From Nitrospirota bacterium (GTDB lineage: Bacteria > Nitrospirota > Thermodesulfovibrionia > Thermodesulfovibrionales > BMS3Bbin05), in assembly GCA_020351835.1 (NCBI GenBank), contig CP070669.1:1736827-1800826 (forward strand): 64,000 nucleotides of DNA. Direction: 5' to 3'. Shown here in pieces: positions 2,165 through 42,232 of this stretch. Under the pieces are notes generated by a model, which was given only the letters and a program-made list of their open reading frames with translations, made no database searches and had not been told where the DNA came from. Every line of letters begins with the position of its first letter. The stretch's first letter is position 1. A program made the position numbers and the translations under genes.

Positions 2165-2779
2165 CTATTCGCAATCCTGAATATAGCCGCTTAGAAACTC
2201 GATCCTTTTCTGCAATCTCTCTTTTTCGACCTCATCCTCTGTCAGATCTTTAAGGATATTTAGGTCAAGTATAATAAAATATGTCCATCCGTTATTTCGG
2301 TCTATCTCCAGCGCTCCCTCGACATATTTTATATCCTTTTGCACTTTCGCAGCCTTTCTCAGCATTACCGAATGATAAATATCATTGGGGGACTTACCCG
2401 GTTTTGCAGGAGAACTTCCGCCGGCACTTAACCTCCTAAGCTCTTCTACGGTTCTCTTCTCTTCTGCACACTTACCGACGGAGGCAAACTCATCGGCTTT
2501 TGTAAGTAAGGTCTCATCCGATTTTTTGACATAAGAAAAGAACAGATATTTCTGAATATACGCATCTGATATAGCGCATATATCATCAAGTTGTGCAAAT
2601 ATATCGATGGCGTTCACAAGGGACAGTTCAGCATCACAAACTCTTCCCTCAAGGAACGATCGCCTGAATCGCTCCATTTCGTCCAGGGCCTGGTTGCGTA
2701 TCGTATCCGGAAGCTTACCCGGCGTATAGCATGAGACCAAGCCTGCCATCACTATCATTATTATCATTATCTTTTTCAT
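2165..2779 (-). CDS. Lipoprotein encoded at the end of the Mla-like operon, family not recognised
   Basis: The signal plus lipobox reads MKKIMIIMIVMAGLVSC. Its start overlaps the MlaD-like stop as ATGA. The rest of the protein looks helical. Confidence 0.55.
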   Translation of the reverse strand: MKKIMIIMIVMAGLVSCYTPGKLPDTIRNQALDEMERFRRSFLEGRVCDAELSLVNAIDIFAQLDDICAISDAYIQKYLFFSYVKKSDETLLTKADEFASVGKCAEEKRTVEELRRLSAGGSSPAKPGKSPNDIYHSVMLRKAAKVQKDIKYVEGALEIDRNNGWTYFIILDLNILKDLTEDEVEKERLQKRIEFLSGYIQDCE

Positions 2780-3615
2780 GGATTAGGGAGCTCCGGCCTT
2801 TCCTTTCTTTCTCCCTCTTTAGGTGCGAGTGGCCACGTGTTGTTCAGCTTTAATAAGAGTCCGCTTCCAAGGTTGAGCGTACGATCGACCTTTCTTCTCA
2901 GCAGGTCGAGATCTCGAGTGGTCTTTGATATATTATCAAGTACCGGGTTTAACCTTTCGTTCACAGTAAGGTTTAGATCAGTGCTAAGAGTGTTTGCGTT
3001 CTCACCCAGAATTATGATCTTATCTAACATAGTGTCGATCTTTACCTTGCTCTCCTCTTCGAACATGAGATAAGAAATAGCACCTTTTCCATCTTCGACT
3101 GTAATGCTCAGCTTATCAGAGATTACCCTTATGTTCTTTACTATCCGGCGCACATCCTCCATCACGGGTTTCGCCTCTTTTATCAACGCGTCAATTCCTC
3201 CTTCGAACTCCAGGATAAATATCGCTTCCTCCTGCATTGGTTCCTTATCTGCCGAACCTGTCGTGAAATGAAGGTATGGATTGCCTATCATGCTTTCCTG
3301 GGTAAAAAAGACCCTGCTATCGCTCTTGATCCACTTCTGATATCTTTTTAGGATCGACAGAGTAAGCACGATATTACCGTCCTCACTTAATTCGACCTTG
3401 GACACCTCTCCCATCCTGAACCCTTCGAACTTGACCGGTATCCCTGCGAACAGTCTTTCACCGGTCTCTGAGTAGACAAAATACTTTATCTTTTTGGAAA
3501 AAAGGTCCTTTTGATATCCGACATAAAGAAGAGCTATTACCGTGAAAAGGATCACCAGTAGCGCCAGAGCCCCGATCTTTACTTCAAGGTGTTTGAATTT
3601 CCCTTCAGCAGCCAA
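2776..3615 (-). CDS. mlaD: MlaD/MCE-domain substrate-binding protein
   Basis: It has an N-terminal TM helix followed by an MCE-like block (GIPVKFEGFRMGEVSKVEL...VFFTQESMIGNPYL). It sits between ABC-like and lipoprotein genes with overlapping stop and start codons. Confidence 0.8.
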   Translation of the reverse strand: MAAEGKFKHLEVKIGALALLVILFTVIALLYVGYQKDLFSKKIKYFVYSETGERLFAGIPVKFEGFRMGEVSKVELSEDGNIVLTLSILKRYQKWIKSDSRVFFTQESMIGNPYLHFTTGSADKEPMQEEAIFILEFEGGIDALIKEAKPVMEDVRRIVKNIRVISDKLSITVEDGKGAISYLMFEEESKVKIDTMLDKIIILGENANTLSTDLNLTVNERLNPVLDNISKTTRDLDLLRRKVDRTLNLGSGLLLKLNNTWPLAPKEGERKERPELPNP

Positions 3616-4144
3616 GAGCTACCTCCATATCATATCCCCAGTCTAAAGCATGGCCCTCACCGACCCCGATCCACATCCGGGTACCGGAATTCATTACGCC
3701 CATAAGAGAAGGAAGTACATCCTTGAACTCTTTCAGGGTCAAAGAGTATTTAAAATCGCTCATAAGAACGACCTCCGGGTTCAGCACTATCCCTCTGAGA
3801 AACATTGCTCTGTACAGCTCCGTCTTATTAACTGCCTCTTTTCTACTGTGCATGACACCTGTCAGCCCTAAACTCTCAAGCCTTTGCTCCACCTTTTCTA
3901 TAGCTTCTTTCTTAGTGTTATGTTCATGATACTCAAGAGGTAAGATTATGTTCTCGATTATGCTCAAGTTAGACAGAAAAGGATAATACTTGGATACAAT
4001 ACCTATTCTTGAAGGAAGTGCTGCACCTTCGATGTCCATATCTGCAAGAGCCTCAAGAAGTTCGATGATATCACTATCATGTAGATAGCTTATCTCGATA
4101 TTCTTACTTGTATCCAGTATATTCCCCTTATAAGATATTTCCAT
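3605..4144 (-). CDS. ABC ATPase-like protein with degenerate catalytic motifs (MlaF position)
   Basis: It is only 179 aa. The Q-loop-to-H-loop region is recognisable (RIGIVSKYYPFLSNLSIIENIILPL, LNPEVVLMSDF, GEGHA). There is no GxxGxGKS/T Walker A, the signature is VNKTE instead of LSGGQ, and Walker B lacks DE. Confidence 0.6.
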   Translation of the reverse strand: MEISYKGNILDTSKNIEISYLHDSDIIELLEALADMDIEGAALPSRIGIVSKYYPFLSNLSIIENIILPLEYHEHNTKKEAIEKVEQRLESLGLTGVMHSRKEAVNKTELYRAMFLRGIVLNPEVVLMSDFKYSLTLKEFKDVLPSLMGVMNSGTRMWIGVGEGHALDWGYDMEVALGC

Positions 4145-4919
4145 ATCTAATCATATCATAGACGAGATCAAAGAAGACTATGAGCATTAATTGAAGCACC
4201 AGCCCATGGATCAATTTGACCGGGACCTCTGTGATGGAATGTTTAACACTTAAGGCATCCCTGATAGAAATAAAAACTATTATCAACCCGAACACGGTAG
4301 ACTTGATATATACAGTTATGAAATCCATCATGTCGGCTGATGCCGCCATTTTCATCAAATAGTCCTTGAACGGCGTGTTATTTATGTATCCAAAAGATAT
4401 AAAACCTCCTATAAGAGCTATCAGGCAGAAAAATACAGCAAGCATGATATTTGACAGTACTATAGCCGTAAAACGGGGGAACATCAAATATTCATACATG
4501 TCTATGCTAAATCCCTTTAACGTGTTCAACTCATTGTTCAACTTCATCAGGGCTATCTCAGATATCATGGCGCTGCCAGACCTTAACATCACTATAATTG
4601 CAACGAATGCTGATGAGAGCTCGTTAACTATAACAAGAAGAATGAAATCCCCTATCTGGTCATTGGCCCCGATAGAAGTAAAGAAATTGATAATATAATG
4701 AACTATTACAGCACCCATTACAAACGCGCCCGCAAATACAATGGGAACAGGCTGAACTGCCGTAAAATAAAGCTGTCTTAGGATAATCTCGAAGCCTGCC
4801 GGTGAGAAAACACTTCTGAAGCCCTTTAAAGTTCTTACAAAAAGGATAATAACGTCATGCGCCAGCTCATATTGCCTGAGAACGAATGCCCCTTGTCGTC
4901 TCAGAATAGTTTCTATCAA
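4128..4919 (-). CDS. mlaE: MlaE-type ABC permease
   Basis: It is a polytopic membrane protein of MlaE length and layout (263 aa). It is the first gene of the operon and overlaps the next ORF by 17 nt. Confidence 0.8.
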   Translation of the reverse strand: MIETILRRQGAFVLRQYELAHDVIILFVRTLKGFRSVFSPAGFEIILRQLYFTAVQPVPIVFAGAFVMGAVIVHYIINFFTSIGANDQIGDFILLVIVNELSSAFVAIIVMLRSGSAMISEIALMKLNNELNTLKGFSIDMYEYLMFPRFTAIVLSNIMLAVFFCLIALIGGFISFGYINNTPFKDYLMKMAASADMMDFITVYIKSTVFGLIIVFISIRDALSVKHSITEVPVKLIHGLVLQLMLIVFFDLVYDMIRYGNIL

Positions 4920-4935: not shown

Positions 4936-6237
4936 TCAGGTTCTTCCTACGCTGTAATATTTGAACCCAAGCCCCTTCATCACATCCGGTTCATAAACAT
5001 TCCTCAGGTCAAAGAAATAGTTCTTCTTCATCTCACTTTTGACCTTCTTCATGTCGAGATTCCTGAACTGGTTCCATTCAGTTATGATCAATGCAGCATC
5101 TGCACCTCTGAGTGCATCGTAAGCATCCTTTGCGAACTTCACGGAGGGCAACACGTCACGAGCATCGTCCATAGCTGCAGGATCATAAGCACTGATCCTG
5201 GCCCCTTCGTTCATCAGGGCCTCTATTATATGTATTGCAGGTGCTTCACGCATGTCGTTAGTGTTCGGCTTGAACGCAAGCCCGAGGACACCTATCTTCA
5301 CGCCCTTCAGTTCACCCATGGCATGATTTATCTTAGAGACCATTCTGTCCTTTTGTTGCTCGTTAGTCTGCACCGCGGCTTTAACAACGTCCATCTCTAC
5401 CCCGTGGTCCTGCCCTATCCGGATAAGAGCCCTCGTATCTTTGGGAAAGCACGATCCACCGAAACCGGGACCCGGGTGAAGGAACTTCCTTCCTATTCTA
5501 CCGTCAAGCCCCATTCCCTTTGATACCATATGAACATCAGCTCCAACCTGCTCACACAGATTCGCCATTTCGTTTATGAAGGATATCTTGGTTGCAAGAA
5601 AAGAATTAGACGCATATTTAATGAGCTCAGCTGTCTCTATATTGGTTATAACGAAAGGTGTTTCGATAAGATACAAAGGCCTGTAGAGGTCCTTCATTAT
5701 AGCGATGGCCTGCTCACTGTTCGAGCCAAGCACTACTCTGTCCGGCCTCATGAAATCCTCAATGGCCGCTCCTTCCCTGAGGAACTCAGGGTTAGACACG
5801 ATATCAAAATTCACTTTCTTCTTGAGGTTCTTCTTCATTATCTTTCTGATACGCTCGCCTGTACCTACCGGGACGGTACTTTTCGTAACAATGACCTTAT
5901 AATCCTTCATTAGTGCAGCCATCTGTTTTGCAACTTCATCCACATATTTCAGGTCGGCTGACCCGTCTCCCCTGGGTGGAGTACCGACCGCTATGAATAT
6001 CACAAGTGATGATCTTATCGCATCGTCAAGCTTAGTACTGAACGACAACCTTCCCTGCTCTACGTTCCTCTTTACCAGATCATCCAGGCCGGGCTCATAA
6101 AATGGTATCTCACCTTTTTTTAAAGCTCTCACCTTCTTCTGGTCCTTATCAATGCATGTTACATATACTCCGAACTCAGCAAAACATGCGCCCGTAACAA
6201 GTCCTACATACCCGGTCCCTATCACTCCTATATGCAT
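4936..6237 (-). CDS. ugd: UDP-glucose 6-dehydrogenase
   Basis: The N-terminal Rossmann motif is MHIGVIGTGYVGLVTGACFAEFG. The catalytic block GFGGSCFPKD is present. The length of 433 aa fits the family. Confidence 0.9.
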   Translation of the reverse strand: MHIGVIGTGYVGLVTGACFAEFGVYVTCIDKDQKKVRALKKGEIPFYEPGLDDLVKRNVEQGRLSFSTKLDDAIRSSLVIFIAVGTPPRGDGSADLKYVDEVAKQMAALMKDYKVIVTKSTVPVGTGERIRKIMKKNLKKKVNFDIVSNPEFLREGAAIEDFMRPDRVVLGSNSEQAIAIMKDLYRPLYLIETPFVITNIETAELIKYASNSFLATKISFINEMANLCEQVGADVHMVSKGMGLDGRIGRKFLHPGPGFGGSCFPKDTRALIRIGQDHGVEMDVVKAAVQTNEQQKDRMVSKINHAMGELKGVKIGVLGLAFKPNTNDMREAPAIHIIEALMNEGARISAYDPAAMDDARDVLPSVKFAKDAYDALRGADAALIITEWNQFRNLDMKKVKSEMKKNYFFDLRNVYEPDVMKGLGFKYYSVGRT

Positions 6238-6271: not shown

Positions 6272-7009
6272 TCAGTCTTTTATCTCCTTGAGCTCAGCTG
6301 TAACGTGTCCTATAAGTGCTTCCAACTGTATCTTCACCGGTACTTTTCTGTGATCATCCGTTACCCAGATGAATATATCCCCCCTGCTGCTGAATATACC
6401 CTCTGATTGCAGGTTAGGTTTAATTAGTATCGTATCGAACTCTCCTGCCCGTACCTTTATTTTTTCCTTTTTAATTATGTCGACGACCACATCCCACACC
6501 TTCTTACTGTCAAAGATCTTCAATATGACCGGCTTACCCACATGCAGCTCCATACGTCTTAGTGAAAAGAACCCTGAAAGAGGATCATATGAGTTCTCCA
6601 CTATGTCGAAAATCTTCTTCTCTTTCTTCCTGTGATCCAGGTAAAGGGCCTTCTTTTCATCCTGTCGGAAGCGGACCTCTTTGTCTTTCCTGCTACTCCC
6701 TTCTCTTAACTTAAGATGGTAGTTAATAGCCTTTCCGTATTCTCCACCACTACCATCTACGATACAGGTTATGCGGTCATCCACCTTATAAAATGATGAG
6801 ATAAAGTCTGTAGACTCCGCTCTTGACTCTATAACGTAGTTGCTATCCTTCATCTCGACGCTCATTGTAGCTGTCCCGGCCTTTATGCCAAGCCATTTCA
6901 GTTCATACTTAAGCCACTCCGGAACATTAAACGCCTCAGCTTGTACAGACATAACCGTGAGAAATGATATAAATACAATAATGATTATAATTGAACGATT
7001 GTTCCTCAT
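6272..7009 (-). CDS. DUF3108-like secreted protein
   Basis: I moved the start to MRNNRSIIIIIVFISFLTVMSVQAEA, which forms an ATGA overlap with the HD gene stop. The pattern YELKWLGIKAGTATM...GDIFIWVTDDHRKVPVKI is typical of DUF3108. Confidence 0.6.
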   Translation of the reverse strand: MRNNRSIIIIIVFISFLTVMSVQAEAFNVPEWLKYELKWLGIKAGTATMSVEMKDSNYVIESRAESTDFISSFYKVDDRITCIVDGSGGEYGKAINYHLKLREGSSRKDKEVRFRQDEKKALYLDHRKKEKKIFDIVENSYDPLSGFFSLRRMELHVGKPVILKIFDSKKVWDVVVDIIKKEKIKVRAGEFDTILIKPNLQSEGIFSSRGDIFIWVTDDHRKVPVKIQLEALIGHVTAELKEIKD

Positions 7010-7545
7010 AGCGATCCTTCTGCTTTCTTGTTCCCTTTTGCTGCTGATATCCATGATAGTATCTTTTCATGCATTTTGATGAACCTCTCTATAGCGGGAT
7101 GTTGCTCACCAAGAGTGGCCTTAAACATGGTCAAAGACCTTTCGAACGAATCTGTTCTATCACTCCTTGCCAGATTATCTGCGTAAGCTACGATCATCTC
7201 TTCCGGCGCTTCTGGCATATAATTTTTAGATGGCAATCCAAGTTCCTCTGCTTCGTCCTTTGTAATCCCAGACCCTATATGCCTCTCTATTATCCTGACC
7301 ACCCTTTCATCCATACCCATCTCTCTTGCTATGTTTGCACCTACCACCGCATGTTCTATGTCAGAGGTCTTTGACCGGCCTATATCATGGTTAACAGCAC
7401 CAGCTTTTATAAGTTCCATGTCGACAGGTATCGAAATGTCTCCTGCTATCTCTAAAGCTTTTTCAGCAACCATTATGCAATGGCTGATAACAGCATCAGA
7501 ACAGCCTGCCAGCCTAAGGTACTTAAGGTCCGCATCATCTATCAC
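7006..7545 (-). CDS. HD-domain phosphohydrolase
   Basis: The HD motif NHDIGRS is present, followed by IERHIGSG. The protein is 179 aa. Confidence 0.65.
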   Translation of the reverse strand: MIDDADLKYLRLAGCSDAVISHCIMVAEKALEIAGDISIPVDMELIKAGAVNHDIGRSKTSDIEHAVVGANIAREMGMDERVVRIIERHIGSGITKDEAEELGLPSKNYMPEAPEEMIVAYADNLARSDRTDSFERSLTMFKATLGEQHPAIERFIKMHEKILSWISAAKGNKKAEGSL

Positions 7546-8458: not shown

Positions 8459-8941
8459 ATGCCATCATTTGATATTGTATCTGAAATCAATATGCACGAA
8501 GCAACGAATGCCATCGATCAGGCGAACAGGGAGGTAGCAAATCGTTTTGACTTTAAAGGGACGAACTCCCGCTATGACAGGTCTGATGATGACATAATGA
8601 TGACATCTGTGTCAGAGTTCAATTTGAAGCAGATGATCGAGATCCTCAAGCTGAAACTGACCAAGAGGGGCATAGATATCAGCTGTCTTGAGGTCTCCGA
8701 ACCTGATATCTCCGGTAAAGAGGCACGTCAGAAGATCACCCTAAAGCAGGGGATCGATACTGAACTTGCTAAGAAGATCGTGAAGATGATAAAGGACGCA
8801 AAAATGAAGGTTCAGGGATCTGTACAGGGTGATAAGGTCAGGGTCTCTGGCAAAAAAAGGGACGACCTGCAAAAGGTTATATCGATGGTAAAAGATGCTG
8901 AGCTCGGAATTCCACTTCAGTTCGTTAATATGAGAGATTAA
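8459..8941 (+). CDS. yajQ: YajQ-family nucleotide/c-di-GMP-binding protein (UPF0234)
   Basis: The N-terminus MPSFDIVSEINMHEATNAIDQANREVANRFDFKG and the length of 160 aa are diagnostic of YajQ. Confidence 0.85.
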   Translation: MPSFDIVSEINMHEATNAIDQANREVANRFDFKGTNSRYDRSDDDIMMTSVSEFNLKQMIEILKLKLTKRGIDISCLEVSEPDISGKEARQKITLKQGIDTELAKKIVKMIKDAKMKVQGSVQGDKVRVSGKKRDDLQKVISMVKDAELGIPLQFVNMRD

Positions 8942-10683
8942 CCTGTTTCAGCTACATTTTCGTCGCTAAGGTCAATATTACCGTCTATCGCTCTCAGACC
9001 TTCTATTGCTTTCTCATTAAAAGGGGAAATATCGAGAGCCTTCCTGAAAGAGCTTTTAGCCCTTTGTTTGAACCCAAGTTTATAGAAAGTAAAACCCAGT
9101 GCAGTATGATAGTTTGTCATGTCGGGATCAAGCCTGACCGCCTCCTTTAGCTCTTTAGATGCTTCCTTGTAGAATGACAGCCTGTTAAGAGCAAGCCCTC
9201 TGTAATAATGATATTTTGCGTTGAACCCGGCGATCGATATAGCTTCAGCAAAAAGCTGCTCTGCCTCTATATAAGAATGGTGCAGCATTTTTGACCGACC
9301 TTCTTCGAACTTCTTTTCAGCTTCCTGTTCAACGGTCAGATCGCCTTCTGCAATGTTCTCATCGGGCTCGGTCTGAAGCGATTCATCATATTCTTCCCGC
9401 TCCTCCAGGTCAGACAACGCGTTATAGGCTTCAGTTATAATGCCTAGTATTTCGTTCAACTTTCTCTTGGTATCCTCCGATGATATGGCGAAATGCCTGT
9501 CAGGGTGGAACTCCTTGGCAAGACTAAAATATGCCTTCTTTATCTCATCCGTTGTCGCATATGACTTCACACCGAGCACTTTGTAATAATTTGCGGTCTG
9601 GCATATATCATACATATCATCCACCATTTTTACGAACTCCTGATCGATCTCCGCGAGCGGTTCGCTGATGATCTCCTCCGGGGTCACGTACTGCTGGGGC
9701 TGGTCCTTCTTCCTCTCCACTATGATCCGTGCGCTAAGAAAAGCATAGATCGATTTTATTGTCTCAAAATCGTTCATAAGTTCCGGGGTCAGGATATCCC
9801 TTATAGGTGTCTCTCCGTCTATTCTCGAAAGTATCTCCTTCCCTGTATCATCTAGGGCAAGGTCCTGGAACAGGTCCATTGGGTCCTCAGATAGGCACAA
9901 TACTGTATCAAGAGAAGGGAAGTCCTGCAGTATGTACTGAAAATTATTGATCCTTTTAATACTATGATATATAAGGTTTGCAGCGCTCAGGTTCAATGTG
10001 ATAGCCTCATTTGCTGTCAAAGGCCCCTCCTCGAACTCGAAATAACCGCAATCGCTGATCAATATACTGACAATTATTTCCATTACCTGATGCCTTACAG
10101 CTTTAGTTAGATCTGTCGCGTCAAGGTAGCCTAGCTTTATAAGCACAGCACCAAGTCTGTTGCCTGTGCTTTTTAACAGCTCACTTGCCTCAAAATATTG
10201 TTCCAGAGATATCTGCCCTTCTTTAAGCAGGACCTCGCCGAAGCGGTCATCTTCCCTGTTAGAACGGGCAAATACCATATCTCCGCCTTTTATGAATATT
10301 TTTGTTACTCTGGACCCTGATGTAACGACAAGTGTCCCTGTCTTCATGCTTCTCTGCAATCCGAGCAATATGTCAGGGAGCCTGAACTCCTGACAACTAC
10401 CCTTTATGGCACCTACCCGCCTGAACCCTACTATCAAACCCTGAAGTGACGGCTTGCTCCAGATGACCTCCCCCAGGAAGTCGATCTCGTACTCCTCAAT
10501 ATCTACTTGTATAACCTTGCCTTGCGGGAATGAGGGTGCGCGGTCCAGTATATGAAGGCACAGTCCATCGGCAGAATAGTCGATCGTTTTGCACCTGTAT
10601 CTTTCCGCATCGATCTTAAGCAAAAACTCCGTCTCTCTCTTATATCGTCTGAATATTCTCTTTTCGTCACTTCTTTCGATCAA
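8938..10683 (-). CDS. PilZ / PATAN(DUF4388) / J-domain / TPR multidomain protein
   Basis: The PilZ motifs are RRYKR (RxxxR) and DYSADG (DxSxxG). A DUF4388-like block is present (MKTGTLVVTSG..IFIKGGDMVFARS..RFGEVLLKEG). The J domain is YYKVLGV...AKEFHPDR, which includes HPD. The C-terminus carries TPR-like repeats. Confidence 0.75.
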   Translation of the reverse strand: MIERSDEKRIFRRYKRETEFLLKIDAERYRCKTIDYSADGLCLHILDRAPSFPQGKVIQVDIEEYEIDFLGEVIWSKPSLQGLIVGFRRVGAIKGSCQEFRLPDILLGLQRSMKTGTLVVTSGSRVTKIFIKGGDMVFARSNREDDRFGEVLLKEGQISLEQYFEASELLKSTGNRLGAVLIKLGYLDATDLTKAVRHQVMEIIVSILISDCGYFEFEEGPLTANEAITLNLSAANLIYHSIKRINNFQYILQDFPSLDTVLCLSEDPMDLFQDLALDDTGKEILSRIDGETPIRDILTPELMNDFETIKSIYAFLSARIIVERKKDQPQQYVTPEEIISEPLAEIDQEFVKMVDDMYDICQTANYYKVLGVKSYATTDEIKKAYFSLAKEFHPDRHFAISSEDTKRKLNEILGIITEAYNALSDLEEREEYDESLQTEPDENIAEGDLTVEQEAEKKFEEGRSKMLHHSYIEAEQLFAEAISIAGFNAKYHYYRGLALNRLSFYKEASKELKEAVRLDPDMTNYHTALGFTFYKLGFKQRAKSSFRKALDISPFNEKAIEGLRAIDGNIDLSDENVAETG

Positions 10684-36248: not shown

Positions 36249-38924
36249 ATGGTAAATCTGATACTTAGAAAGATTTTTGGCACAAAGACCGAAAGAGAGC
36301 TTAAACGCTTATTGCCCCTTGTAGAACAGATTAACGGACTTGAAGCCTCTATATCAACCCTCTCTGACGAGCAACTTCAGGGCAAAACGGAGGAGTTCAG
36401 GGCAAGGCTGAGGAGCGGAGAAACTTTGGACGATATACTGCCGGAGGCCTTTTCGGTCGTGAGAGAAGCCTCCAGACGCATCCTTAATATGAGGCATTTC
36501 GATGTTCAGTTAATGGGTGGCATGGTACTTCATGAGGGTAAGATAGCAGAGATGAAGACCGGGGAAGGAAAGACGCTCGTCGCGACGGCCCCTGTTTACC
36601 TTAATTCAATAGAAGGAAGGGGTGTTCACGTCGTAACAGTAAATGACTACCTTGCCAAGAGAGATGCCCAGTGGATGAGCCCTGTATATCATTTTCTCGG
36701 TCTTACCGTAGGGGTCATTCAGTCCGACCATTCTTTTTTTTATGATCCTTCTTATACAGGAGATGATGTGCGCTTGCAGAACCTGAGACCTTGCAGCAGA
36801 CATGAAGCATATTCAAAGGATATAACATACGGTACCAATAATGAGTTCGGATTTGACTATCTTAGAGATAACATGAAGTACGAATTCAGTGATTATAGTC
36901 AGAAGGTCCACAACTTTGCGATAGTGGATGAAGTGGATAGTATCCTTATAGACGAGGCCCGTACCCCGCTAATAATCTCAGGGCCGTCCGAAGAATCAAC
37001 TGATAAGTACTACAATATAAACAGGATGATCCCTAAGCTTCAGGTCGATCAGGACTTTACTATAGATGAAAAGGCCAAGACCGCCATTCTCACCGAGGAA
37101 GGAAGTGTAAGAGCAGAGCAACTGCTAAATGTTGACAACCTTTTCGATCCATCTAACATCGATCTTGTTCATCACGTTCTTCAGGGCCTTAAGGCTCATC
37201 ACCTCTTCAGGAAGGATGTTGATTATGTTGTCAAGAACGGCGAGATCATAATAGTAGACGAGTTCACTGGGAGGCTCATGCCGGGAAGGAGGTGGTCGGA
37301 CGGGCTTCACCAGGCTATAGAGGCTAAGGAACATGTAAAGATCGCAAGCGAGAACCAAACGCTTGCCACGATCACATTTCAGAACTACTTCAGGATGTAT
37401 GACAAATTGGCTGGAATGACAGGAACGGCAGATACTGAGGCAGAGGAGTTCGCAAAGATATATGATCTTGATGTAGTGGTAATACCGACCAATAGGGACA
37501 TGGTAAGAAATGACCATTCAGATATGATATATAAGACCGAAGCTGCAAAGTTCAGGGCTGCAATAAATGAGATAAGGGACTGCCATGAAAGAGGGCAGCC
37601 GACTCTGGTCGGGACTATATCTATAGAAAAGTCTGAACTTCTCAGTAAGATGCTCAAAAAGGAGAAGATACCCCACTCAGTGCTAAATGCAAAGTATCAT
37701 GAAAAGGAAGCGGAGATCATAGCTCAGGCCGGCAGGCTTGGGGCGGTGACCATAGCAACAAACATGGCCGGAAGAGGCACTGATATTGTGTTAGGTGGAA
37801 ATCCCGGTATAGTTTCGAGAGAGATACTGAGAGATATTAACGATCCTTCAGATGAACAGTTGCAGGATGCTCACAGCAAAGCAGAGGAGCAGTGCCTTGC
37901 CGAAAAAGAGAAAGTACTTGAAGCCGGAGGACTACATATCCTTGGAACGGAAAGGCATGAGGCAAGACGTATCGACAACCAGTTGAGAGGCCGTTCAGGA
38001 AGGCAGGGAGACCCTGGAAGCTCCAGGTTCTATCTTTCACTTGAAGATGACCTGATGAGGATATTCGGTTCTGACCGGATATCAGGGCTTATGGACCGAC
38101 TCGGAATGGAGGAGGACGTACCGATCGAGAACAGACTCGTGAGCCGCGCCATAGAGACATCACAAAAGAGGGTCGAGTCACATAACTTCGACATCAGAAA
38201 GCATCTTCTTGAGTATGACGATGTAATGAACAAGCAGAGAACCGAGATATATGCATACAGGAGAGAGATACTCACATCGGATTCACTTAGGGACAAGGTT
38301 GTTGAAATGATAGACATATGCATTGATGAGCTATTGTTTATTTATTGCCCTGAGGATAAGCACCCTGAAGAGTGGAATTTTTCAGGGCTTAAGGAGGCCT
38401 ATTACGGTATTTTCGGGTTCACTCCATCCGGAACGGAGGATATAAAGGGCATTGAAGCGCTCAGGCAGGAACTTACTGAACAATCGTTAACCTTCTACAG
38501 TGTCAAAGAGAGCGAGATAACCGAAGAGGTCATCCGCAGCATAGAAAAAATGGTCATGCTCCAGGTAGTAGATAGCCAGTGGAAAGATCATCTTCTGGCG
38601 ATGGACCACCTTAAGGAAGGAATTGGGTTAAGGGGTTATGGACAGAGAGATCCTCTTGTTGAATATAAAAGAGAGGCATACGATATGTTCACTGATATGA
38701 CAGACAGGATCAATACGGAGATAATTACAAGAGTGTTCAGAGTTCAGATTAGATCAGAGCAGGAATTATCAGGCTCTATCAATAGATCTCAAAAAATGGT
38801 ATACAGTAGAGGGGAGTCTGAGTCAAAACAGCCTGTAAAGAAGACCGCTAAGGTCGGGAGAAACCAGCCCTGCCCTTGCGGGAGCGGCAAAAAATACAAG
38901 AAGTGTTGTGGTGCTAATGTATAA
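36249..38924 (+). CDS. secA: Preprotein translocase ATPase SecA
   Basis: I trimmed the start to [20 protein letters not shown], the conserved SecA N-terminus. The block [12 protein letters not shown] and the DEVD box are present. The C-terminal zinc finger is [14 protein letters not shown]. Confidence 0.95.
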
Positions 38925-40320
38925 TGTAATAATCATAGGTAGCGATCTCCAGTTTGATGAGAAGTTCAAGACGATCATTGCGGAATCTAATATTAATGCG
39001 ACCTCTTTCAAGACCATTTCACAGGCAAATAAGCATATAAAGGACGCATCAGCAATAATAATAACTAACGAGATGTCAGCCGATAAGGGGTTTGGAGAGT
39101 TCATAAGGAGAACGGAGGACATACCAAAACTGGTGGTTATGAAGGAATCCCCTATGAGAGGGTTGAACAAATGGACAAGATCTGACCTCATCTATCCGAT
39201 CCTTACTCCCTCACATAAGGAACTTCTTTTCTACATAAATAAAGCTATCGCCGACAGTGAGATTTATCATAAATACGCTGAACTGAAGAACGATTTCCTG
39301 ATCGCAAAGAATGACCTCGTCCTGTACGAAGAGATGAACAGGTCACTTACAGCATCCCTTGACCTTGACGAGATCATAGATAATTTCATGAAGCTTATAG
39401 TTGACAATGCTAATGCGAAGGAGTGGTCCCTTTATTTCTACGATGAAGAAGAGAAGGGGTTATTTCTTGAGAAGACCCATAGAAAGAGCCAGAAGAGATC
39501 AAAGAACGACAGACTGAAGCTCGGAGAGGGAATAGCAGGATGGGTCGCTCAGGAAGGACATCCGATCATAATACCTGACTCAAGCAGGGATAAAAGAATA
39601 AGCGCAAAATCAAAGAAGGAAAAAGTTATACAGAATAAATCGATCATCTGTGTACCACTTAAGAGCAAAGGAGACCTGATCGGGGTACTTGAGGTATTTA
39701 ACAAGAAAAAGAACGTGCCGTTCTCAAAACATGATCTTGATATTATTCAGAAGATAGCTGACTATGCGTCCATTGCTATAGAAAGAGCGTCGCTATACCA
39801 GAAGATGGCTGATCTTGCTATTACTGACGACCTGACGAAATTATTTAACTCCAGATATCTTAACAGGACAATAGAGATAGAGCTTACAAGATGTGAGAGG
39901 TACAATACCTCGGTATCATTGATATTCATGGACCTTGACTATTTCAAGGAGATAAACGACCAGCACGGTCATCTGGTCGGAAGCAAGGTTCTGGTTGAAC
40001 TTGGTCAACTACTTATAAAAGGCCTCAGATCAGTTGATATAGTTTCCAGGTATGGAGGAGATGAGTTCGTCATCGTGTTGCCTCAGACCTCTCCTACTGT
40101 CGCCACCGAAATAGCGGACAGACTGCGCATATCGATAAACAGGCATATCTTTCTTAAAAAAGATGGGCTCAACCTTAAACTTACGGCTAGTTTTGGTATT
40201 GCATCATATCCTGAAAGCGCTGGTTCAAAAGAAGAACTACTAAGACTTGCAGATGAGGCAATGTACGAGGTAAAGAACAGGACAAGGGACGGCGTCTACA
40301 CTATAAAAGCCTCTTCTTAA
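38917..40320 (+). CDS. Diguanylate cyclase with a degenerate receiver-like N-terminus and a GAF domain
   Basis: The motif [13 protein letters not shown] carries an RSVD I-site five residues upstream. A GAF-like block is present ([19 protein letters not shown]). The ATG overlaps the secA stop by 8 nt. Confidence 0.85.
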
Positions 40321-40363
40321 GGGGTTCCCTTTTTTATATGTTCAGTGTACAATAATTACAAAT

Positions 40364-42232
40364 ATGGCTCTTTTTAATTACGCGACAAAAGAGATCACTC
40401 TCAAGATAGTCTATTACGGACCAGGCCTCAGCGGGAAAACCACTAATATTGAATATCTACACTCGACGTTTGATCCTAAAAGCAGGGGAAAGCTTCTTTC
40501 ATTGTCCACAGAAGCTGACAGGACCCTCTTCTTCGATTTCCTTCCTGTCGAGATAGGAAAGATAAAGGAGTTCTCGATACGGTTCCAGCTCTATACTGTG
40601 CCAGGACAGGTACGGTACAACTCTACAAGAAAGCTTGTATTAAAAGGTGCTGATGCAGTTGTATTCGTCGCCGATTCGCAGGAGGCAATGAAAGAGGCTA
40701 ATATCGAGAGCTATCAGAATATGAAGGAGAACCTTTTAGAGAATGGCCTTGATATCAATGATATCCCTATTGTGTATCATTATAATAAGCGTGATCTTCC
40801 GGATATCCAAAGTGTCGATGCTATTAGCAGGGACATTAATCCTAACGGAGCATCATTTTTCGAGGGTGTTGCTATAGAAGGAAAGGGAGTAGAGGAGGCT
40901 TTTCAGGCCGTAACAAAACAATTACTTAAGCATATAGCCAGGAAGCACCGCATTGATCTCTCTTCGAAGGAAACGATGTCAGTTGAAACGCCGTCATTGG
41001 TCGAAGAGGAGGTTATTGAGGAGCTATCGCCCCTGGAAGCCATTCATGCAGATGAAATGGGCATGGAAGCTGAGGAGACAGTCGAAGCTGGTATCTTTGA
41101 AGGTGAGGGCTCATCTTTGGAGGAACTTCATGCCGAAGTAGTAAGTGATATCGATGAAGATGAGGCAGTGGAAGCAGACATATTCGAACCGGGTACTGGA
41201 TCAGATGAGATCAATGACGTACCTTCACTTGAGGAACTTCAGGAAAAGATGGCCCGTGAGTTGGAGGATGATTCGACAGCGGATGCAGAGGCCGTCCTGT
41301 CAAAAGGAGCTGACTTTGAATATGAAGGTGAAGACGATGCATTCGTCCTTGAAGAACCTTCTATTGATGATACAGCTGGATCAAGTTTTGATGACGGATC
41401 AGATGACATAGATCTGGTGAGCTCTGAGTTCGATGATACACCTACCGAAACAATGGATGACCTGCAGGACCAGGAAGAGGTCATGGAGAGCTCAACTATC
41501 GAAGACAGGGATGAAGAGATGTCCTTTGAGATACCTGAAGAACCTGCTGAACAGGAACCTGACAATGTCATAGAAGAAGAGCCTGAGCAAGAGGATGAAT
41601 CTATTGAATCCATTTATAAGGCATTTATGACCGAAGAGGAGGAAGATACGGGTGATGTAGCCGAGTCAACGCCTGAGCCTGATTTCACTCCACCTCCCCC
41701 TATAGTTGAAAGTACTCCTGAAGTCAAACCTAGTCCTTCCGAAGAGATCGAGATCACACTTCCTGAAGGGTCCGAGGAAGAGGAACCGGCCTTTGAAGAA
41801 CCTGAAACTGAAGCAGTTGAGTCAGCTGAGTTCAATGACTTCAGTAGCGCTATATCCGAAATGGAGCGTGAGAAACCTGCACAAGATACCCGTTCTGAAA
41901 AGTTATCGCCTGTATCCGGGGAAACCGGCATATCTGAAGCAACAAGGAACGTTATCCTCGATGAGATCAACGCTCTTTCCAAGAGCGTAGGTAAAATGGG
42001 TAGTGCTATGTCTTCCTTTAAGTCCGAGCTTAGCGTACTGGCGGACAGGATAGCTGACATTGAAAAAAGCATATCTTCGATAAGTGAACAGGCGGACGAA
42101 ATAAAGGAAGCGGTCGAGAACGGATCGGCCAGTCCCGGGATGTTAACAAGCCAGACCCTCGAGACGATAATGCAGTTGAAAAGCAGTATAGATAAGGCAA
42201 AAAAGAAGAAGTTCTGGTTATTTTTCAGCTAG
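40364..42232 (+). CDS. MglA-like Ras-superfamily GTPase fused to a long acidic low-complexity C-terminal region
   Basis: The first roughly 190 aa closely follow the MglA pattern (KIVYYGPGLSGKTTN, STEADRTLFFDFLP, LYTVPGQVRY, YNKRDL). The remaining roughly 430 aa are D/E/S/P-rich. A coiled-coil-like end terminates in KAKKKKFWLFFS. Confidence 0.8.
   Translation: MALFNYATKEITLKIVYYGPGLSGKTTNIEYLHSTFDPKSRGKLLSLSTEADRTLFFDFLPVEIGKIKEFSIRFQLYTVPGQVRYNSTRKLVLKGADAVVFVADSQEAMKEANIESYQNMKENLLENGLDINDIPIVYHYNKRDLPDIQSVDAISRDINPNGASFFEGVAIEGKGVEEAFQAVTKQLLKHIARKHRIDLSSKETMSVETPSLVEEEVIEELSPLEAIHADEMGMEAEETVEAGIFEGEGSSLEELHAEVVSDIDEDEAVEADIFEPGTGSDEINDVPSLEELQEKMARELEDDSTADAEAVLSKGADFEYEGEDDAFVLEEPSIDDTAGSSFDDGSDDIDLVSSEFDDTPTETMDDLQDQEEVMESSTIEDRDEEMSFEIPEEPAEQEPDNVIEEEPEQEDESIESIYKAFMTEEEEDTGDVAESTPEPDFTPPPPIVESTPEVKPSPSEEIEITLPEGSEEEEPAFEEPETEAVESAEFNDFSSAISEMEREKPAQDTRSEKLSPVSGETGISEATRNVILDEINALSKSVGKMGSAMSSFKSELSVLADRIADIEKSISSISEQADEIKEAVENGSASPGMLTSQTLETIMQLKSSIDKAKKKKFWLFFS

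Follow-up and report, generated by a model that had tools for sequence, protein, structure and literature searches.

The stretch of DNA analysed here, 64,000 nucleotides from a Nitrospirota bacterium (BMS3Bbin05; contig CP070669.1, positions 1,736,827 to 1,800,826 of the forward strand; hereafter the window), carries on its minus strand, at 2165-4919, four overlapping open reading frames (ORFs) that encode an MlaE permease, a protein of 179 residues, an MCE protein of the MlaD type and a lipoprotein. The 179-residue protein has the homology and the predicted fold of an ATP-binding cassette (ABC) nucleotide-binding domain (NBD), and lacks Walker A, the Q-loop Gln, the LSGGQ signature, the Walker B Asp-Glu pair and the H-loop His; we call it the pseudo-NBD, or pNBD. 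The four genes make up a module of the Mla type that spans several phyla and has, as its sole NBD, a pseudoenzyme devoid of a P-loop; NBDs of this sort are not described for Mla/MCE operons in the open-access literature that we searched, which is not a proof of novelty. What the first-pass annotation of this DNA did not see is that the pNBD, far from being particular to one genome, belongs to a multi-phylum family with a co-conserved lipoprotein. Our best reading, towards which we lean with a confidence slightly better than even, is that the pNBD is a structural subunit, derived from MlaF, of an Mla variant that is independent of ATP.

A nucleotide-binding domain without its nucleotide site

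The 179-residue ORF has no match in Pfam even at E<=1, ABC_tran (PF00005) staying below threshold, and the NCBIfam models of FtsE, DarD, LolD, PstB and MlaF match it weakly, over profile positions of about 75-191 only. A hidden Markov model (HMM) of canonical NBDs nevertheless scores the pNBD at E 1e-19, HHalign aligns it to canonical NBDs with a probability of 99.6% (E 1e-23), and a profile built from its homologues matches, in the PDB, the NBDs of BceA, ArtP, LolD, MacB, LptB and MlaF over query residues 39-163. The structure predicted by AlphaFold2 from a family alignment of 49 sequences has a predicted local distance difference test (pLDDT) of 92.2 and a predicted TM-score (pTM) of 0.89; with 12 close homologues alone the pLDDT was 53.5, which is unusable, and the 49-sequence alignment was used instead. 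The top Foldseek matches listed for this model are all ABC NBDs—including LolD, FtsE, LptB and MlaF—with TM-scores of 0.65-0.78 over about 170-195 columns, that is, essentially the entire chain.

The Walker A motif, searched as the regular expression GxxxxGK[ST], occurs nowhere in the pNBD nor in the 52 short members of its family presented below. Alignments of canonical NBDs do not reach further towards the N-terminus of the pNBD than residue about 39-45. The first 43 residues are nevertheless more than a stump, as the AlphaFold2 model places there three beta strands and a helix matching the NBD core, with only two residues linking strand beta3 to helix alpha1 where a canonical NBD has a P-loop of eight residues. 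The possibility that the ORF is the C-terminal piece of a split MlaF was ruled out, since there is no room for the rest upstream, where MlaE ends at 4128. Further along the chain, residues 51-73 align to IGFVFQ..L...L.V.ENI.LP of canonical NBDs, with Ser as the family consensus at the Q-loop Gln; Ser129 occupies the position of the Walker B Asp and Asp130 that of the catalytic Glu, and the D-loop equivalent that follows reads SLTL. At the H-loop, the nearby His165 is not conserved, being Arg in one homologue (P0009) and Met in others (P0010/11).

The first-pass annotation had described a protein without Walker A, with LSGGQ replaced by VNKTE and with a Walker B region reading VVLMSDF, and these losses are borne out by the profile alignments to solved and canonical NBDs, in which no intact Walker A or B had been overlooked. 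It had also described the scaffold from Q-loop to H-loop as kept. This stands for the scaffold, but two more catalytic residues are gone, the Gln of the Q-loop (here Ser51) and the His of the H-loop (here Gly162), so that the scaffold alone has been retained. As modelled, the pNBD is thus predicted to be a compact and complete NBD fold minus its nucleotide site, not a fragment.

Descent from MlaF

Among full-length proteins, those most closely related to the pNBD are MlaF-like NBDs that have degenerated in part and to graded extents (P0047, P0074, P0116, P0048, P0054, P0051, P0080 and P0095). Proteins of the P0047 type have kept Walker A, the Q and the Asp-Glu pair, LSGGQ being absent; in the type of P0051, P0080 and P0095, Walker A has no Lys or no Ser (e.g. 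GPEKSGKD, GPENCGTD) and neither the Q nor the signature is found; in the short pNBD family all motifs are gone, plus about 40 N-terminal residues. The best PDB relatives of P0047 are MlaF and MceG, and P0047-type proteins carry, in common with the pNBD, the hallmark SNLS..ENI.LPL.YH, which in the more general form (S/T)(N/D)(L/M)(S/T)..EN(I/V).(L/F)P(L/I).xH is common to the pNBD family and to the MlaF chain of Acinetobacter baumannii. This affinity of P0047 to MlaF and MceG and this MlaF hallmark argue that the pNBD descends from MlaF; it would be a degenerate MlaF maintained in the ancestral E-F-D gene order. One member of the graded series, P0095 (L018, 6001-7480), lies in a TrkA-TrkH-NBD-MlaD context with no MlaE adjoining.

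Distribution and conservation of the module

A library of 1.84 billion cluster representatives was searched with an HMM of the family; of the best 150 matches, 52 are proteins of 125-181 residues with neither Walker A nor signature motif. Their typical size is roughly 165-180 residues, and the core P(L/F)(L/I)SNLS..ENI is common to 45 of the 52. Hosts belong to the Thermodesulfovibrionales (Nitrospirota), to Desulfonauticus and to the Deferribacterales, and include the cultured Desulfonatronum lacustre, D. thioautotrophicum and Calditerrivibrio nitroreducens. All seven genomic contexts that were looked up have the order MlaE-pNBD-MlaD, and the gene after MlaD encodes there a protein of about 200-250 residues; beside the next-nearest relatives of MlaE (32-36% identity) a short ORF with no Pfam match is also found between MlaE and MlaD. 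The module occurs in at least three phyla: Nitrospirota, Desulfobacterota and Deferribacterota.

Further loci were collected from metagenomes by scanning with a degenerate DNA pattern, then classifying with HMMs; 22 of the 57 stretches so obtained have no MlaE/pNBD/MlaD module. Among the 46 loci with a pNBD, some of which are redundant copies, MlaE is immediately upstream in all 46; MlaD is immediately downstream in 37 of the 38 loci having room for it, and the lipoprotein is matched by its HMM in 17 of the 25 having room. Judged by gene order, the association of the pNBD with MlaE appears obligate. At one locus (L036, 6264-8608) the pNBD stands beside an MlaE broken into three ORF fragments, with no MlaD match; decay of this copy, or else a fault in the assembly, might account for it. 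A scan of a genome collection gave four other matches, rejected as not family-like (24-27% identity, partial, in unrelated taxa), BMS3Bbin05 being the sole close species representative there.

The annotation of these proteins is misleading: in databases they are named 'hypothetical protein', or generically ABC-type ATPase or ATP-binding subunits. Automated annotation thus hides the pNBD family, and surveys based on synteny with ABC_tran would count such clusters as MlaDE only. Grasekamp et al. (PMC10665443) noted MlaDE clusters and the 'uncertainty of MlaF annotations', and did not describe pNBD proteins.

A protein with no Pfam match could be a decaying MlaF pseudogene or an artefact of ORF calling, the more so as the pNBD is the fastest-evolving gene of the operon: compared with the lineage BMS3Abin07, its identity is 49%, against 61-77% for MlaD, MlaE and UDP-glucose 6-dehydrogenase (UGDH), although its rate is near that of the lipoprotein (53%) and of the DUF3108 protein (52%). 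The conservation data refute this explanation, to which we leave practically no probability. The frame is intact and overlaps its neighbours, and the orthologous operons of relatives hold an equivalent motif-less ORF: the 11 close homologues are all of 178-179 residues while their identity goes down to 34%, with 40 invariant columns. The proportion of nonsynonymous differences (pN, 0.31-0.44) is far below that of synonymous differences (pS, 0.73-0.83, saturated); these proportions are given instead of dN/dS because synonymous sites are saturated, one pair alone giving a finite dS (2.9, with a ratio of 0.14). Besides, about a third of the best matches examined above (52 of 150, representing clusters at 50% identity) are short and motif-less, with members named from three phyla, the fold is confidently predicted and the synteny is invariant. 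Such a recurrence goes far beyond what chance would give. The sequence comparisons indicate that the pNBD is under purifying selection, and the earlier claim that the ORF is no decaying pseudogene, made from the intact and coupled frame, is upheld by the fixed length, the recurring synteny and the low pN.

The permease and the predicted docking surface

The MlaE of the module aligns over its full length to the structures of MlaE from Pseudomonas aeruginosa, Escherichia coli and A. baumannii, and to that of mycobacterial YrbE1A. The best-conserved part of this MlaE subfamily is the coupling-helix region, LRSGSAMISEIALMKLNNELNTL; the stretch has in the subfamily the form LRSGxAxIxEIALMKxNNELxTL, includes here LRSGSAMISEIALMK, and R113, S114, A117, E121, M125, E130 and L134 are invariant. 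In the pNBD family, conservation peaks at residues 51-70, with 2.8-2.9 bits per position, and is lowest in the former ATP-site elements, with 1.0-1.5 bits; P55 and N65 are invariant, and conservation reaches 90% or more at L60, E64 and L68. In canonical NBDs, the Q-loop and the first helical-subdomain region line a groove into which the membrane subunit inserts its coupling helix. In the MlaFEDB complex, the contact between MlaE and MlaF is made by the coupling helix located between the second and third transmembrane helices (PMC7790496). Residues 51-73 of the pNBD may thus be the docking site for the coupling helix of MlaE, as suggested by their sequence conservation.

Other conserved residues of the pNBD lie near the former signature: R101, K102, E103, E109 and R117 are conserved family-wide, perhaps beyond the needs of a scaffold. 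This, like the extra conserved gene for a protein of 345-349 residues found in Desulfobacterota modules, would fit a regulatory switch, the pNBD binding a ligand—be it a nucleotide bound in a non-canonical way, a second messenger, a precursor of lipids or another protein—that gates MlaE with no hydrolysis. We consider such a switch quite improbable. The pNBD has no recognisable binding motif; its N-terminal and Walker B regions, which line the would-be nucleotide pocket, are the least conserved; and R117 and its neighbours, which we take to correspond to the ARAL helix of canonical NBDs, are structural in these NBDs too.

A lipid conduit that may work without ATP

The pNBD would be made stoichiometrically with MlaE, because their genes overlap, and would sit on both cytoplasmic coupling helices of the MlaE dimer, at the site of MlaF in MlaFEDB, as a purely structural cap. 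MlaE2-pNBD2-(MlaD)6, together with the periplasmic lipoprotein, would constitute an Mla-type envelope lipid conduit with no ATP hydrolysis at the pNBD. In the likeliest mode, MlaE would be held nucleotide-free and outward-open, its pocket continuous with the MCE pore, and lipids would distribute themselves passively between the inner membrane on the one hand and the periplasmic or outer-membrane side on the other.

Conservation of a P-loop-less subunit in the same module across at least three phyla makes it probable that the variant is ATP-free at that subunit. A pNBD homodimer has no ATP site, because the P-loop is wholly absent. Within the 64-kb window no canonical NBD was found, and in 408 kb around the 46 loci there are only two canonical NBD ORFs, both unrelated, one being PstB in a phosphate-transporter operon and the other an edge fragment. 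On this reading the module would have no further ATPase, and both the passive mode of transport and its direction are what we infer. Two published results agree with such a mode: MlaFEDB free of nucleotide adopts an outward-open state, in which lipids are bound in a pocket that leads without a break into the MCE pore, one channel running through MlaE and MlaD (PMC7790496), and in vitro the transfer of phospholipids between MlaFEDB and MlaC is spontaneous in both ways, ATP only biasing it in the retrograde sense (bioRxiv 10.1101/2021.05.25.445566). An outward-open nucleotide-free state and a spontaneous two-way transfer make the ATP-independent mode plausible. A more specific version—the dead NBD locking MlaE outward-open, the MCE extension and the lipoprotein forming a bridge to the outer membrane, and the whole being, in Nitrospirota, Desulfobacterota and Deferribacterota, a dedicated equilibrative and effectively anterograde conduit from inner to outer membrane, in which phospholipids would passively follow their gradient—is one that we doubt more than we believe.

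The transporter could alternatively be driven by an ATPase encoded elsewhere, of the MceG/Mkl kind, the pNBD being then accessory, regulatory or an exchangeable placeholder. The coupling helix of MlaE, strongly conserved, could equally serve a real NBD, and a mycobacterial YrbE/MceG complex has been solved (8fed). We nevertheless find a trans-encoded ATPase unlikely. The pNBD is co-translated with MlaE in 46 of the 46 loci; as it keeps the surface that docks the coupling helix, it would compete for the only two sites of the MlaE dimer; and a mixed dimer of the pNBD and a real NBD could not build a complete ATP site, because the pNBD gives neither Walker A nor signature. Besides, near the module no canonical NBD is found in any phylum but that of the unrelated phosphate-transporter operon. 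The first-pass annotation had offered two alternatives, an ATPase acting in trans or a conduit that needs no ATP and has a pseudo-ATPase as a structural part; both are still apt, and the second is now favoured by the conservation of the pNBD and of the MlaE coupling helix and by the lack of a nearby NBD.

Some points weigh against an ATP-independent module with a structural pNBD. NBDs were surveyed in the 64 kb of the window and in flanks no longer than 10 kb, and the ATPase of the mycobacterial Mce systems is encoded away from the mce operons, which is a precedent for an ATPase in trans. The AlphaFold2 model is a prediction resting on 49 sequences; the binding of the pNBD to MlaE is suggested by a pattern of conservation; and the substrate and the passive mode of transport are what we purely infer.

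In which direction Mla systems transport, and what ATP contributes, has been a matter of dispute for years, and a conserved lineage of several phyla that keeps MlaE, the MCE protein and the NBD fold without any ATP-binding residue is a natural experiment on this question. In the more specific version above, that of a passive anterograde conduit, the module would be an evolutionary 'knock-out' of ATP coupling, offering a direct test of the part that ATP takes in Mla transport. It would also be a rare ABC transporter with a pseudoenzyme as its only NBD, and not merely with one degenerate site. The existence of cultured hosts (Calditerrivibrio nitroreducens, Desulfonatronum spp.) makes the system experimentally tractable.

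The MlaD-like protein and the lipoprotein

The MlaD of the module has an N-terminal transmembrane helix, one MCE domain (residues about 43-120) and then about 150 residues with no domain match, which are probably helical. The NCBIfam model of the Mce family (TIGR00996) matches residues 17-254 and that of MlaD (TIGR04430) residues 8-131; there is also a weak and partial match to PqiB (E 0.005). In an alignment of 10 orthologues, the middle region varies in length and the C-terminus is conserved, with the motif LLLKLNNTWPL...ELPNP.

The lipoprotein has no relative in Pfam (E<=1), NCBIfam or the PDB, nor any PqiC (PF03886) signal. Homologous fourth genes with a lipobox are nevertheless found at other loci (L001, L004, L014, L016 and L017; blastp E 1e-7 to 1e-81), and the homology extends between phyla (E 1e-7 to 1e-17 against the protein of the window), all of them having lipoboxes. 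Four cysteines, Cys48, Cys68, Cys104 and Cys203, are conserved in most, not all, orthologues, a pattern that suggests periplasmic disulfides. The module thus brings to MCE systems a new periplasmic lipoprotein partner.

The long MlaD extension with its conserved C-terminal TWPL motif, the co-conserved lipoprotein and the loss of all energy-coupling motifs would also be expected of a trans-envelope tether or scaffold that transports nothing, in which the MCE hexamer, its extension and the lipoprotein stand on an inert MlaE-pNBD base. Such a tether seems to us very unlikely: the MCE domain and the transmembrane core of MlaE are conserved across phyla, and PqiABC and LetAB, which are MCE systems with no ATPase, are still regarded as lipid transporters.

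Comparison with known systems

Among Mla systems, the module has the PF02405 permease and the PF02470 membrane-anchored MCE protein, and does not have a competent MlaF. It resembles the MlaFEDB complexes of E. coli, A. baumannii and P. aeruginosa (6xbd, 7d06, 7ch8) in its MlaE with a coupling helix, its MCE MlaD with an N-terminal transmembrane helix and its co-encoded subunit of NBD fold. This subunit, in contrast with MlaF, lacks the residues of all five sites (Walker A, Q-loop, signature, the Asp-Glu pair of Walker B, H-loop), so that it does not qualify as a competent MlaF, and is about 90 residues shorter (MlaF has 269). Moreover neither MlaB, MlaC nor MlaA was detected in the module or in the conserved upstream genes, a novel lipoprotein being the fourth gene, and the MlaD of the module is longer, with 279-340 residues against 183 in E. 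coli (PMC10665443). The absence of MlaA, MlaB and MlaC is a feature of most non-proteobacterial Mla systems (PMC10665443). One of these, the 'ancestral core' MlaEFD of Veillonella parvula (Grasekamp et al. 2023, PMC10665443), shares with the module the E-NBD-D order, the long MlaD and the lack of MlaA, MlaB and MlaC; its mlaF homologue, however, is described as very similar to the one in model diderms, and a beta-barrel forms the end of its MlaD, whereas the module has a dead NBD and a separate lipoprotein.

In mycobacteria, the Mce1-4 systems with the shared MceG/Mkl (8fed-8fef) have YrbE proteins of the MlaE family and MCE proteins with long C-terminal regions. Unlike the module, which has one MlaE, one MCE protein and a resident pNBD, each mce operon combines two YrbE with six Mce and no NBD-like gene.

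We also considered that the module belongs to the Pqi/Let systems, which was ruled out by its inner-membrane protein, an MlaE, by the single MCE domain and by the lack of a PqiC signal. The Pqi system does have a lipoprotein partner, PqiC. The likeness to PqiABC and LetAB (YebST) is a functional analogy only, lying in an MCE tunnel that crosses the periplasm with no ATPase subunit (tunnels: PMC7790496); PqiA and LetA bear no relation to MlaE, and three or seven MCE domains are present in the MCE proteins of these systems against one in the module.

Finally, ABC transporters with degenerate sites (heterodimeric type I exporters, ABCG5/G8, Cdr1; PMC7756269) have also lost catalytic residues in an NBD, which they keep for its structural or allosteric role. 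These transporters, unlike the module, have one fully active site left, and their degenerate site continues to bind ATP (PMC7756269).

Gene layout and neighbourhood

The coordinates of the module, of the former motifs of the pNBD and of the conserved upstream genes are collected in Table 1. The first-pass annotation had proposed here an Mla/MCE-type operon of overlapping genes, and its coordinates and gene identities proved correct by ORF calls and by Pfam and NCBIfam. The overlaps are of 17 nt between MlaE and the 179-residue ORF, 11 nt between the latter and MlaD, and 4 nt (ATGA) between MlaD and the lipoprotein. A scan for promoters and terminators in the region was uninformative, the counts being the same as in shuffled sequences.

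Table 1. Positions, in the window, of the four module genes, of the altered motif sites of the pNBD and of three upstream genes
Feature	Position	Strand	Remarks
MlaE-like permease	4128..4919	-	263 aa; PF02405, E 2e-43; TTG start preceded by GGGGAGG
Pseudo-NBD (pNBD)	3605..4144	-	179 aa; ABC NBD fold (predicted), probably MlaF-derived, without catalytic motifs
MlaD-like MCE protein	2776..3615	-	279 aa; PF02470, E 1e-10
Lipoprotein	2165..2779	-	204 aa; signal peptide and lipobox LVS|C
Former P-loop site (pNBD)	4040..4099	-	residues 16-35; strand beta3 (IEISY), LH, helix alpha1 (DSDIIELLEALAD), as predicted by AlphaFold2
Q-loop equivalent and first helical-subdomain helix (pNBD)	3926..3994	-	residues 51-73, SKYYPFLSNLSIIENIILPLEYH; Gln replaced by Ser51
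Signature position (pNBD)	3818..3832	-	residues 105-109, VNKTE; aligned to ISGGQ of BceA and to LSGGE of the canonical profile
Walker B position (pNBD)	3752..3772	-	residues 125-131, VVLMSDF; not conserved in the wider family
H-loop (switch) position (pNBD)	3656..3670	-	residues 159-163, IGVGE; Gly162 aligned with the catalytic His (HHalign)
UDP-glucose 6-dehydrogenase	4936-6237	-	Pfam; upstream and co-directional; context, not a core part
DUF3108 protein	6272-7054	-	Pfam; upstream and co-directional; context, not a core part
HD-domain protein	7006-7545	-	Pfam; upstream and co-directional; context, not a core part

The order HD-DUF3108-UGDH-MlaE-pNBD-MlaD-lipoprotein is found again in five loci of a Thermodesulfovibrionales-like clade (L001-L005); its recurrence, down to the 17-nt overlap of MlaE with the following ORF, is seen in BMS3Abin07, BMS3Bbin05 and one more distant lineage. 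In other phyla the module has different neighbours, e.g. MnmG or ArgJ, the synteny with UGDH, DUF3108 and HD genes being limited to the clade. This synteny hints at a clade-specific link with the envelope or with glycolipids. A Pfam scan of eight ORFs between 916 and 7054, which comprise the module itself, the genes for UGDH and the DUF3108 protein and a further two ORFs downstream, gave no match to STAS (MlaB), PF05494 (MlaC) or PF04333 (MlaA).

In Desulfobacterota modules a fifth conserved gene is present, which encodes a protein of 345-349 residues with an N-terminal transmembrane helix and no Pfam match (L014, 6301-7347; L016, 8113-9162; L020, 12230-13267; 27% identity between L014 and L016, E 6e-46). 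It is followed by genes for CorC and for the apolipoprotein N-acyltransferase Lnt, and MnmG lies upstream of these modules.

Directly downstream of the module in the window, two overlapping ORFs (916-1452 and 1439-2095, both on the minus strand) encode tandem lipoprotein-like paralogues (37% identity, E 5e-30); they have lipobox-like TACA/TGCA motifs, belong to no Pfam family and are not kept beside the module in related loci.

Other observations in the window

Two further regions carry unusual domain combinations. At 8938-10683, on the minus strand, a protein of 581 residues joins PilZ, DUF4388, DnaJ and TPR domains, an unusual fusion of a cyclic di-GMP receptor with a J-domain. At 38908-42232, on the plus strand, the gene of a GAF-GGDEF diguanylate cyclase is followed by that of a 622-residue protein with an N-terminal small-GTPase domain of the Ras/Arf/Roc type.

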